A stretch of 58,842 bases of DNA, from positions 1 through 58,842 of the forward strand of contig CAAFMG010000149.1 of the NCBI GenBank assembly GCA_900763965.1, written 5' to 3'. Every line of letters starts with the position of its first letter. The stretch's first letter is position 1. This document shows positions 44,514 through 46,436 of this stretch, piece after piece. The translations under genes were made by a program, and so were the position numbers. This DNA comes from an uncultured Oscillospiraceae bacterium. Lineage in GTDB: Bacteria > Bacillota > Clostridia > Oscillospirales > Oscillospiraceae. Under the pieces are notes generated by a model, which had not been told where the DNA came from, ran no database searches, and saw nothing but the letters and a program-made list of their open reading frames with translations.

Positions 44514-44866
44514 AGACAAAATACTGGATCCTGTGCCTTGCGGGAATCTTTGCCCTCTGCCTGGGGCTGAGTGTTTTCCTGTTTTCCAGGGAACAGGGGA
44601 ACTATGCGGAAATTTTCAGCGATGGGAAACGGGTAGCACGGGTGGATCTGAGACAGGATCAGGTGCTGCGGGTGGAAACTGTCCAAGGCGGCTGCAACGA
44701 GATTACCATCACCGGCGGCAAGATCGGAGTCACCGCTGCCAGCTGCCCGGATCACATCTGTATGCACCGGGGCATGTGCAGCCACGGCGCACAAATCGTC
44801 TGCCTGCCCAACCGCCTGGTGATCCGCTTTTCACCCTCCAAAGAGCTGGATACCGCCGCCGGATAA
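44510..44866 (+). CDS. NusG domain II-containing membrane-anchored protein (DUF1312)
   Basis: N-terminal TM; ASCPDHIC...IVCLPNRLVI. Confidence 0.88.
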   Translation: MKTKYWILCLAGIFALCLGLSVFLFSREQGNYAEIFSDGKRVARVDLRQDQVLRVETVQGGCNEITITGGKIGVTAASCPDHICMHRGMCSHGAQIVCLPNRLVIRFSPSKELDTAAG

Positions 44867-44883
44867 AATTTTGAAAAAAGTGC

Positions 44884-44912
44884 TTGACAAGACCGCATCT
44901 ACAGTGTATACT
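44884..44912 (+). promoter_or_regulatory. tRNA promoter
   Basis: TTGACA-N17-TATACT. Confidence 0.75.
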
Positions 44913-44935
44913 AACCCAGTGTTCAGCGCACCAAT

Positions 44936-45012
44936 GGACGATTAGCTCAGCTGGCTAGAGCATCCGCTTGACGTGCGGAAGGTCATAGGTTCGAGTCCTA
45001 TATCGTCCACCA
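44936..45012 (+). tRNA. tRNA-Val (GAC)
   Basis: Cloverleaf; anticodon arm TCCGC-TTGACGT-GCGGA; GGTTCGAGTCC; encoded CCA. Confidence 0.97.
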
Positions 45013-45049
45013 AAAATACAGCACCACCTTTTGGTGGTGCTGTATTTTT
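45012..45049 (+). terminator. tRNA-Val terminator
   Basis: AAAAATACAGCACCACC-ttt-TGGTGGTGCTGTATTTTT. Confidence 0.85.
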
Positions 45050-45052
45050 ATG

Positions 45053-45311
45053 GATATAGGACTCGAACCCATTTAAATGCAATATGCCAGCGGCATATTG
45101 CGGCCACCAGTTCAAAAACTGGTGGCAACCATACGATTTGCCCCGGGGGCAAATCGGCCATCGAGTCCTATATCGTCCACCCAAACACAGCATCTCTCCC
45201 GGCGGGGCTGTGCTTCTTCTATCACAGAACCCGCCCCCATCGAAACACCCCATGCCAGTGGCATATGGCAGCCTCGGCCATCGAGTCCTATATCGTCCGT
45301 CCATCGTCCAC
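45053..45311. repeat. tRNA-Val-derived repeats enclosing REP-like hairpins
   Basis: Inverted copy of tRNA 44988-45004 at 45053-45069; direct copies of the tRNA 3' end at 45161-45181, 45281-45298 and 45303-45311; three hairpins at 45079-45156. Confidence 0.85.
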
Positions 45312-45321
45312 TATACATGAG

Positions 45322-45364
45322 AAATCCGAACCCATTCCCCGCAGGGGAGAGGTTCGGATTTTTG
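45322..45364 (+). terminator. Terminator-like hairpin
   Basis: AAATCCGAACC..TCCCC-gca-GGGGA..GGTTCGGATTT plus T-run. Confidence 0.65.
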
Positions 45365-45397
45365 CTTTTTATTACAGGTTTAATCTTATGGATGTCT

Positions 45398-45436
45398 GCA
45401 CCGGCAGCCTCACTTCAAAAGTAAGGCTGCCAGTGC
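45398..45436. terminator. Hairpin downstream of the LacI gene
   Basis: GCACcGGCAGCCTcACTT-caa-AAGTaAGGCTGCCaGTGC. Confidence 0.5.
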
Positions 45437-45455
45437 TTTATAATATAATAAATAC

Positions 45456-46436
45456 TTATGCCTTTGTTGTGCCGCCCCAGGCGTATTGCACCGGCAGGGA
45501 GACGTTGGCGGGGGCGTTATCTCCGTGCAGAAGCAGGTGGACGGCGGTTTCGGCCATGTCTGCGACGGGCTGCACGATGGTGGAGCAGACGTACCGCCCG
45601 GTGGCAAAATCAAGGATGCCGTCATAGCCGATGACCTGCACATCTTCCGGGATCCGGATCCCCCGGCTGCCCAAAAATTCGCAGATCCGGACAGCCAGGC
45701 CGTCGGAGTTGCAGAAGATGCCGTCAAATTCCAGTTTTCCCTCCCGGATGTGATCGTCCAGGAATTGATAGAAGGGGGCTGCGGTGTCCTCGTCCCGGAG
45801 AAGCAGGCTTTGGTAGGGGATCTGTGCCTGACGGCAGGCGCTTTCAAAGCCGGGGCCCCGCTTATCCGCCTCGCCGTGAATATCCGGGCCGATGCGGAAA
45901 AACAGGAGATTCCGGCACCCAAGCTCCATCAGCTTCCGGGCCGCCAGTTCGCCTCCCAGGTAGTTGTCTGAGGATACGCAGGGAATGGCGGCGGAAAAAT
46001 GCCGGTCGATGGTCACAACGGGCACGGACTCGTCCACCTCCAGATCGGGGCTGTAGGACAGGGCAATGATGCCGTCGATCTTGTTCTGCTGGGCCAGCTG
46101 GAAGCAGTTCTTTTCTGCCACGGAATCATAGTTTGTGGTCATCAGCAGGCTGCGGTAGCCATTGCGGAGCAGGCAGCTGGTGAGCTCGTCGGTGAGGGCG
46201 GCGAAAAAGGGATGCCGCAGGGAGGGCATTACCAGCGCCACACAGTAGGTTTTGTTGGTTTTCAGCCCCCGGGCGTAGTTATTTACCTGGTAGCCCAGCT
46301 TTTTGGCGGCGGCCTCCACCTTTTTGCGATACTGCTCGCCTACGGGCAGGTCATTCATGACCTTGGATACGGTGCCCAGCGCCACACCGGCCTCCCGGGC
46401 TACGTCTTTCATAGTTGGTGCATTTCCTGATGCCAT
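45456..46436 (-). CDS. LacI family transcriptional regulator
   Basis: PTMKDVAREAGVALGTVSKVMN; VSSDNYLGG; PEDVQVIGYD. Confidence 0.96.
   Translation of the reverse strand: MASGNAPTMKDVAREAGVALGTVSKVMNDLPVGEQYRKKVEAAAKKLGYQVNNYARGLKTNKTYCVALVMPSLRHPFFAALTDELTSCLLRNGYRSLLMTTNYDSVAEKNCFQLAQQNKIDGIIALSYSPDLEVDESVPVVTIDRHFSAAIPCVSSDNYLGGELAARKLMELGCRNLLFFRIGPDIHGEADKRGPGFESACRQAQIPYQSLLLRDEDTAAPFYQFLDDHIREGKLEFDGIFCNSDGLAVRICEFLGSRGIRIPEDVQVIGYDGILDFATGRYVCSTIVQPVADMAETAVHLLLHGDNAPANVSLPVQYAWGGTTKA

Follow-up and report, generated by a model that had tools for sequence, protein, structure and literature searches.

A gene-less, hairpin-rich repeat unit of about 130–170 bases was analysed behind the tRNA-Val(GAC) gene of an uncultured Oscillospiraceae bacterium (assembly GCA_900763965.1), in a stretch of 58,842 nucleotides that makes up contig CAAFMG010000149.1 and is referred to below as the window. 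The unit belongs to a repeat family whose members follow tRNA and transfer-messenger RNA (tmRNA) genes, carry arms matching the tail of the local tRNA (T-loop to CCA), are gained and lost within defined boundaries, and differ between genomes in presence and copy number. The reading favoured here, to which a probability of roughly 50% was assigned, is that the unit represents a small mobile DNA module, not autonomous and targeting the tails of tRNA and tmRNA genes, the ends of which are copied from the target and form a folded target-site mimic. Genomes, contigs and loci are cited by G, C and L numbers, respectively.

The repeat unit and its family

The tRNA-Val(GAC) gene occupies positions 44936..45012 of the forward strand (ARAGORN; Rfam tRNA, 68.9 bits), and the sequence copied in the unit is the tail of this tRNA, about 44990–45012. 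The unit begins with a bidirectional intrinsic terminator (45012..45049; perfect 17-bp stem, 100%, with an A-tract and a T-tract), which is followed on the plus strand by a left, inverted arm (45053..45072). The latter is the reverse complement of 44985–45004 over 20 nt at 95%, extending the exact 17-nt complement at 45053–45069 that had been noted in the original prediction; its 3' end is the complement of the T-loop, and 14 nt of it pair with the right arm at 100%. The conserved core (45073..45160, plus strand) is composed of junction J1, hairpins H1 (45079–45101), H2 (45103–45126) and H3 (45134–45156), two of which have 100% inverted repeats, and junction J2. The unit closes with a right, direct arm (45161..45181, plus strand), identical over 21 nt to tRNA positions 44991–45011. 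Both the three near-perfect hairpins and the 21-nt direct tail copy are thus present as predicted from the sequence. Folding of 45050–45183 as single-stranded DNA reproduced the proposed four-way junction with a 14-bp closing stem, which carries the tRNA tail sequence (−43 kcal/mol; z = −10.0; equalled by 0 of 200 shuffles). The parts of the proposed ~130-bp unit were recovered, but not its extent: the terminator belongs to the unit, which is therefore about 170 bp long, and a second, degenerate unit follows. No open reading frame was found in the ~170-bp insert.

The degenerate second unit (45182..45302) contains a terminator-like hairpin (about 45186–45220), a remnant of the left junction, an H1-like hairpin (45252–45270) and a third tail copy (45281–45298), and is devoid of H2 and H3. 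It is followed by a remnant of the original tRNA tail (45303..45311) and by the native terminator (45322–45361 plus a T-tract, to 45366), homologous to the terminator at loci L036 and L016; all of these features are on the plus strand. The same order of tRNA, terminator, arm, core and arm was found at this locus in a metagenome contig of independent origin (L104) and, therefore, the arrangement seen in the window is not a misassembly. L104 has one unit, whereas the window has two; the cores are 97% identical, and the extra ~128 nt of the window (the degenerate unit), which are not present in L104, have tail copies at both bounds. In other species of the genus, the same locus is empty or harbors a unit that is short or has a different core. 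The terminator itself differs between the window (45012–45049) and L104 (L104:610–650), the outer 7–8 bp of both arms being changed in pairs next to an identical tRNA; in L104, it is similar to the hairpin downstream of two further tRNA-Val genes in the window genome, on contigs C142 and C47. Contig C142 of G000 carries a second tRNA-Val(GAC) gene (C142:7944–8020), which has a different promoter region and is element-free in the 144 nt available.

In total, seven family matches were found in the window genome (G000; assembly of 1.97 Mb, 78% complete). Further copies lie behind tRNA-Arg(CCG), tRNA-Val(CAC) and tRNA-Leu(TAG), the last one split over two contig ends; others include a copy with tRNA-Leu(TAA)-type arms behind an island, one at a contig end, and fragments. 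A pattern scan of species-representative genomes yielded 11 loci in Oscillospiraceae metagenome-assembled genomes (MAGs), seven of them behind tRNA-Val(GAC), Val(CAC), Gly(CCC) or Ala(CGC). With a covariance model derived from 13 copies, matches were obtained in 47 out of 61 genomes of the genus (maximum, 21 per genome) and in 4 out of 150 other genomes of the family, representing four other genera, where the copies again lie behind tRNAs with matching arms. The core is thus neither unique to the window nor the product of misassembly. The sparse outcome of an earlier family-wide DNA search (3 of 201 genomes matched) is attributable to sensitivity and to sampling, as only two genomes of the genus were included. 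A full census of two near-complete genomes gave 18 and 19 matches, weak and opposite-strand ones included.

For comparison of the copies, a sample of 75 was assembled from the window genome, the 11 MAG loci, the best match of each of 29 genomes and all matches of G245 and G207; it is biased to good scores. A same-strand tRNA gene is located 34–56 nt before the start of 47 copies, with at least 21 anticodon types represented, and a tmRNA gene precedes three more. Six or seven copies are second or third units of tandem arrays, the upstream sequence is too short to judge in five cases, and about ten copies have no tRNA within 70 nt. Upstream of the remaining three "orphan" copies lie the final ~11 nt of a tRNA tail, which adjoin the stop region of a gene for a large serine recombinase; the split tail indicates that an island has interrupted the tRNA. 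At L005 (G000 contig C53:12560–14110), L070 and L052, the last codons of serine recombinase genes (Resolvase + Recombinase + Zn_ribbon_recom) overlap the final ~11 nt of the tail; judging by the sequence, islands have entered the tails of tRNA-Leu and tRNA-Arg genes at a point immediately upstream of the element.

Arms, cores and unit boundaries

It had been predicted that copies at other tRNA genes would carry the termini of their own tRNA, and this proved to be the case. In the window genome, the copies at tRNA-Arg(CCG), Val(CAC) and Leu(TAG) have arms of their own tRNA rather than of tRNA-Val(GAC), and the arms of the MAG loci track the local tRNA, T-loop variants included. When the right arm was compared at 12 tRNA-specific tail positions, the own tRNA was the best match for 44 of the 47 tRNA-adjacent copies, with a mean of 11.3/12 vs. 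6.5/12 for other amino-acid types. The left arm, scored over a strict ungapped 8 nt, matched its own tRNA best in 24 of the 47 copies (mean, 6.1/8 vs. 4.7/8). The proposal of target-templated ends thus holds as far as matching is concerned, with the specificity of the left arm confirmed only in part; the templating of the arms, as well as mobility between tRNA types, is what we infer from these patterns. Gapped alignments revealed that the left arm always fits the T-loop and T-stem part of the tail and often also the CCA-proximal end beside the terminator. In L002, L020 and L082, it is the complement of the full tRNA 3' end, including the CCA.

A control within the same genome excludes a chance origin of the arms. 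Among 37 CCA-ending tRNA genes of the window genome, for which the 260 nt downstream were searched, copies of the own tail passed the threshold in three cases, all of them element-bearing, and the fourth element-bearing tRNA, Leu-TAG, is cut by a contig end. Neither an inverted nor a direct own-tail copy was found within 260 nt of the 33 element-free tRNAs (0/33).

The nearest neighbours of the cores group by genome and across tRNA types. In G207, the copies at tRNA-Arg(CCG), Arg(ACG), Val(CAC), Ser(GGA), Gln and tmRNA all have their nearest relative within this group (85–98% identity), while the cores associated with tRNA-Val(GAC) fall into at least five unrelated lineages. The cores of contig C94 and L024 are 96% identical and their arms and terminators are different, the likeness ending at the T-loop motifs on both sides. 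Similarly, the G207 copies at tRNA-Gln and tmRNA have terminator and core in common, but their inverted arms are entirely unlike and complement the respective neighbouring gene. The simplest account of these sequence relationships would be spread within genomes accompanied by replacement of the arms.

The same observations bear on the possibility that the copies are decayed attachment-site (att) scars of integrase-bearing islands or prophages. Direct repeats from the T-loop to the 3' end are typical of T-loop-type integrations, and prophage and island junctions do occur at the same tRNAs. However, a 100-nt core found behind more than 20 tRNA types and 85–98% identical within a genome is not something that random deletion scars would have in common, no gene remnants were detected, and the matches in viral contigs are host flanks. 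Such an origin is, in our opinion, hardly credible. The statement in the original prediction that integrase att sites leave direct and not inverted copies fits the right arm, which behaves as an att-type direct repeat.

The boundaries of the unit were defined by comparing empty and filled sites. The empty tRNA-Val(GAC) site L036 and its filled orthologue L016 have common flanks and are exactly one unit apart, the unit being bounded by a 22-nt tail repeat; the native terminator directly follows the tRNA in L036, and the right arm in L016. At four loci, units form tandem arrays with a period of tail, terminator, inverted arm and core, and the last position is taken by a different, native terminator. 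Taken together with L104, these data indicate that the sequence gained or lost is [tail, terminator, inverted arm, core] or, equivalently, [terminator, inverted arm, core, tail]. Both the orientation and the boundaries of the core are constant.

Units of this composition might also be created, copied and homogenised without a dedicated enzyme, if replication switched templates at the palindromes of the terminators and at the T-loop motif of 11 nt that all tRNA genes share, in combination with unequal crossing-over. Quasi-palindrome template-switch correction and bidirectional terminators offer a comparison, since the unit starts with a perfect terminator whose palindrome runs into the tRNA tail. 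Long near-perfect palindromes of tail, terminator and inverted arm are indeed present, with L082, L091 and L085 carrying a perfect palindrome from the T-loop through the terminator; both terminator arms have been replaced in pairs between close relatives, the switch points of the arms lie at the conserved T-loop motif, and no candidate enzyme was found. On the other hand, the terminator alone fails to account for the three-hairpin core, the direct tail copy and the variation in copy number. Three coordinated switches would be needed, one of them to a donor in trans, and the constancy of the core's orientation and boundaries argues against them. In addition, a core of about 100 nt, present in 47 of the 61 genomes and in four other genera, could hardly persist unless selection acted on the element itself. 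We therefore regard an enzyme-free by-product as a rather improbable explanation.

Core structure, known systems and mechanism

Across 75 distinct copies, 93.6% of the cells in the alignment form standard pairs, compared to 72.2% after shuffling (0 of 500 shuffles reached the observed value) and 34–41% with slid partners, the alignment being fitted to the model, which favours structure. Both-sided changes were observed in 36 out of 41 pairs, and covariation is strong in all four helices. For H1–H3, 97–98% of the pairs are standard and 96–97% are Watson–Crick (with 25 G–T and 10 A–C pairs), compensatory changes occur in 25 of 27 pairs, and the loops are 3–4 nt long. The junctions and the H2 stem-loop are conserved in sequence, and H1 and H3 are mutually unlike and variable between copies. 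H1–H3 look more like DNA hairpins than like typical functional RNA, and the slight excess of G–T pairs points to the tRNA-sense strand, if any strand folds. The multi-copy, covarying and non-coding nature of the core agrees well with the predicted non-autonomous, tRNA-associated element with target-matching ends.

The same plan of terminator, inverted tail and structured core, the core starting at the T-loop complement, was found with a different core sequence behind tRNA-Val(GAC) of another species (L029/L105; G209 contig C48:70–195), and this second core family (further loci, L106–L118) is present in 27 of the 61 genomes of the genus. Thirteen of its loci were examined: a called tRNA lies upstream in six of them, and a visible CCA-ending tail in four more. 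In some cases, the inverted arm of the second family complements the entire tail, CCA included, without a mismatch; it has the same T-loop endpoint, and the loop motif of the first-family H1 recurs in one of the second-family hairpins. The fixed T-loop boundary common to both families, together with the long palindromes of tail, terminator and inverted tail, suggests that the inverted arm is a fold-back copy of a tail fragment beginning in the T-loop.

Among the known systems, the RtT repeats of Escherichia coli are the closest. In the tyrT/tyrV region of strain K-12 (L096, NC_000913 1286000–1288200), every 178-bp repeat has a 22-nt inverted arm with 86% complementarity to the T-arm/acceptor of tRNA-Tyr, each unit ends in a 19-nt direct tail copy, and the small RNA RttR is the annotation given to the first unit. 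The layout, namely tRNA-trailing, tandem, non-coding units with an inverted arm and a direct tail copy, is common to both, and the origin of RtT is unexplained. In contrast to the element, the E. coli units are not separated from the tRNA by an intrinsic terminator, and their core is unrelated; moreover, RtT was seen at one locus in the K-12 stretch examined, whereas the new family occurs behind more than 20 tRNA types and tmRNA and is variable between genomes. The tyrT–tyrV spacer has an inverted arm and a tail copy, too, which makes it an RtT-type unit as well, diverged to 66% identity with the reference repeat. According to a mobilome preprint, exonuclease-resistant coverage of tyrT-rttR is raised, which its authors credit to RNA/DNA hybrids (10.1101/2024.07.17.603846). 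Full-text literature searches returned no description of inverted and direct tRNA-tail copies around a conserved core. It is conceivable, and we propose it only tentatively, that the family represents a new class of mobile elements in which both ends are rewritten from the target at each insertion, and that the RtT repeats of E. coli belong to the same class.

Following the example of RtT, the element could instead function as RNA. Read-through from the tRNA promoter would yield a four-way junction with a tRNA-type 3' end, which would be released by tRNA-processing enzymes and have a regulatory or sponge function, and the repeats would have arisen by unequal recombination. The identical layout of the tyrT/tyrV repeats with their annotated RttR, the strong covariation in four helices with conservation of the junctions and of the H2 stem-loop, the weak excess of G–T over A–C pairs on the tRNA strand (25 vs. 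10), and the fact that many right arms retain the CCA and are then followed by a terminator are all compatible with such a function. However, a strong terminator (perfect 15–20-bp stem and T-tract) separates every copy from its tRNA, and the element has no promoter of its own. Wobble pairs are almost absent and loops measure 3–4 nt, which is unusual for functional RNAs, and the Rfam RtT model gave no match. Right-arm mutations are not compensated, either: in an automated test that is noisy through indels, the usable cases were four clean sites, at which the left arm still matches the tRNA, and a single indel case, in which the left arm follows the distal arm. Finally, a function in RNA gives no reason for the arms to copy a particular neighbouring tRNA. 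For these reasons, an RtT-like RNA is considered unlikely, though less so than the other alternatives. The original prediction had also considered that the inverted arm may act as a cis antisense in read-through transcripts.

Several groups of DNA elements share some of these properties. As in tRNA-targeted islands and prophages with tyrosine integrases, for example the tycheposons with their direct partial-tRNA repeats (10.1101/2020.12.28.424599), direct repeats of the tRNA 3' end flank the insert, serial insertions push older ones distally, the tRNA is left intact and tmRNA is targeted. Unlike these islands, the element has no integrase or any other gene, and one core serves many tRNA types, whereas the integrases are tRNA-specific according to the tycheposon preprint. 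The inverted arm is a further difference; in the passages of that preprint returned by a term search, "inverted" was met in the reference list only.

Transposable elements of the miniature inverted-repeat type (MITEs), repetitive extragenic palindromic (REP) sequences, bacterial interspersed mosaic elements and insertion sequences (IS) of the IS200/IS605 type are, like the element, small and non-coding; they lie between genes in multiple copies, form hairpins and have terminal inverted repeats. In contrast to these groups, the terminal repeats of the element vary with the neighbouring tRNA and the direct repeat is 21–25 bp long and part of the tRNA; in addition, no parent IS is known and a Y1 transposase is not required.

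In the case of the CTX-phage attP, which is used at dif, and of the integron attC, two inverted copies of the site within a single strand pair to a duplex imitating the double-stranded chromosomal target. The element is similar in that two inverted copies fold to a duplex identical to the chromosomal target and tandem arrays are formed, and integration of this kind would be expected to leave the topology that it has (target, rest, inverted copy, loop, target copy). The analogy is a functional one only: the target is a tRNA tail instead of dif or attI, and the "genome" of the element amounts to only about 170 nt. In an informal inspection by eye, no integron attC core motifs or dif-like sites were seen.

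Under the favoured reading of a mobile DNA module, the inserted unit would consist of the bidirectional terminator, the inverted tail copy and the three-hairpin core, flanked by a 21–25-bp direct repeat of the tail from T-loop to CCA. Insertion would leave the tRNA intact and displace the original tail and the native terminator downstream, and recombination between tail copies would allow units to be gained, lost and multiplied. Both arms would be copied from the local tRNA at or soon after insertion, the right arm being the duplicated or displaced target tail, and the left arm a fold-back (hairpin-templated) copy that always ends in the T-loop. In a single strand, the ends would zip into a duplex of tRNA-tail sequence, which may serve as a folded mimic of the target site. 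The enzyme would act in trans, and among the candidates a tyrosine recombinase of the host or of an island fits best. Recombinases of the Phage_integrase family are encoded in all five copy-rich genomes (5/5), which is compatible with such a role and does not discriminate.

The original prediction had also suggested kinship with REP sequences and their associated tyrosine transposases (RAYTs), or with short interspersed elements (SINEs). A REP/RAYT or IS200/IS605-type (HUH) miniature element would use internal guide pairing with its target. The element is hairpin-rich, its target, hairpin and complementary arm are ordered like the cleavage-site/guide pairing of IS608 (a functional analogy only), and Y1_Tnp domains are more frequent in genomes with the element (29/47) than in those without it (3/14). 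Nevertheless, Y1_Tnp was not found in the window genome (78% complete) or in the copy-rich, near-complete genomes G207 (98%), G245 (97%) and G217, the element bears no GTAG tag, and H1 and H3 are unlike each other and variable. An HUH-type origin is, therefore, largely refuted and very unlikely. The second proposal implies a retro-element, in which the left arm would act as the primer-binding site for a tRNA 3' end, or the cDNA would be made with a template switch onto pre-tRNA. The left arms of L002, L020 and L082, with the full complement of the tRNA 3' end, and the fixed stop in the T-loop could be explained in this way; as the CCA is genome-encoded, however, its presence in an arm is uninformative about a retro-origin. 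The reverse transcriptase domain RVT_1 was detected in two of five copy-rich genomes and is missing from the other three, including the 97%-complete G245, the helices are DNA-like, and neither poly-A nor any other hallmark was seen. A retro-element, too, has very little probability, and neither of the two suggested kinships could be upheld.

A number of points weigh against a mobile DNA module. The single-stranded folded intermediate and the enzyme are parts of the mechanism that we infer, and no enzyme gene was found near the window copy, the neighbours of which are housekeeping genes. The acceptor part of the left arm matches only partially, with frequent indels of 3–5 nt or unrelated letters, and L089 has the left arm of another tRNA-Arg and no right arm. 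Not every member has a long tail duplication, since right arms of the second core family measure just 6–9 nt. The comparison of filled with empty sites involved different species or close relatives instead of isogenic strains, and the matching of the arms, like the grouping of cores by genome, could also result from tRNA-faithful lineages, the cores of which are homogenised by gene conversion that skips the arms. The sole studied analogue, RtT, is documented as an RNA. Lastly, the assembled contigs of four public runs break at the tRNA and at the element, and one DNA contig covers 45115–45498.

If the favoured reading is correct, tRNA genes of these gut bacteria, and perhaps more widely, are trailed by an uncatalogued selfish or domesticated module that copies the sequence of its target into its own ends, a property for which the literature search returned no precedent among bacterial repeats. 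It would provide a mechanism and a family for the RtT repeats of E. coli, unexplained since the early sequencing of tyrT, and would account for assembly breaks at tRNA loci. The module would also place spare integrase attachment sites beside tRNA genes, which may affect the landing of islands and prophages, and would constitute a compact natural case of a target site mimicked by folding. Should the element prove to be an RNA instead, it would represent a new, abundant structured RNA family of the gut microbiome.

Neighbouring features and additional repeats

The promoter of the tRNA-Val(GAC) gene is of the sigma-70 type (44884..44912, plus strand; TTGACA, a 17-nt spacer and TATACT, 11/12 matches). 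Apart from it, no promoter-like site was found in 44800–45500, and none for the element on either strand. Genes for ApbE and a NusG-II-domain protein are located upstream of the window copy, and those for a LacI regulator and a sugar-binding protein downstream. An Rfam scan of 44600–45700, with E-values up to 10, gave the tRNA as the sole credible match, with no RtT and no family for the element; the miRNA-like matches at the locus correspond to the palindrome. A NrrF-like match at 45399–45488 on the minus strand (31 bits, far under the 60-bit threshold) is probably no more than the long hairpin terminator that separates the tRNA locus from the LacI-family gene converging on it. In the single public RNA run, coverage was restricted to the tRNA, in a different context.

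The window genome was scanned for left junctions without a core, and no cargo-carrying or autonomous versions of the element were detected. Phage-borne copies were considered and rejected, as the two matches in viral contigs turned out to be host flanks beside prophage junctions. In L098, an IMG/VR contig, five tandem 30-nt repeats follow the right arm, about 130–300 nt past the H2 match, and each of them is composed of the last 14 nt of the tRNA-Lys tail and a 16-nt spacer.

A separate, abundant family of GTAG-tagged hairpins (24 strict copies, 143 loose motif matches) was observed in the window genome, outside the 44–46 kb region of the window. Its members are often found at contig ends and are REP-like, though a Y1 transposase was not found in this 78%-complete genome. 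The GTAG family (C34:6195–6216, C53:14313–14334 and 22 other places) interrupts or abuts two copies of the element.

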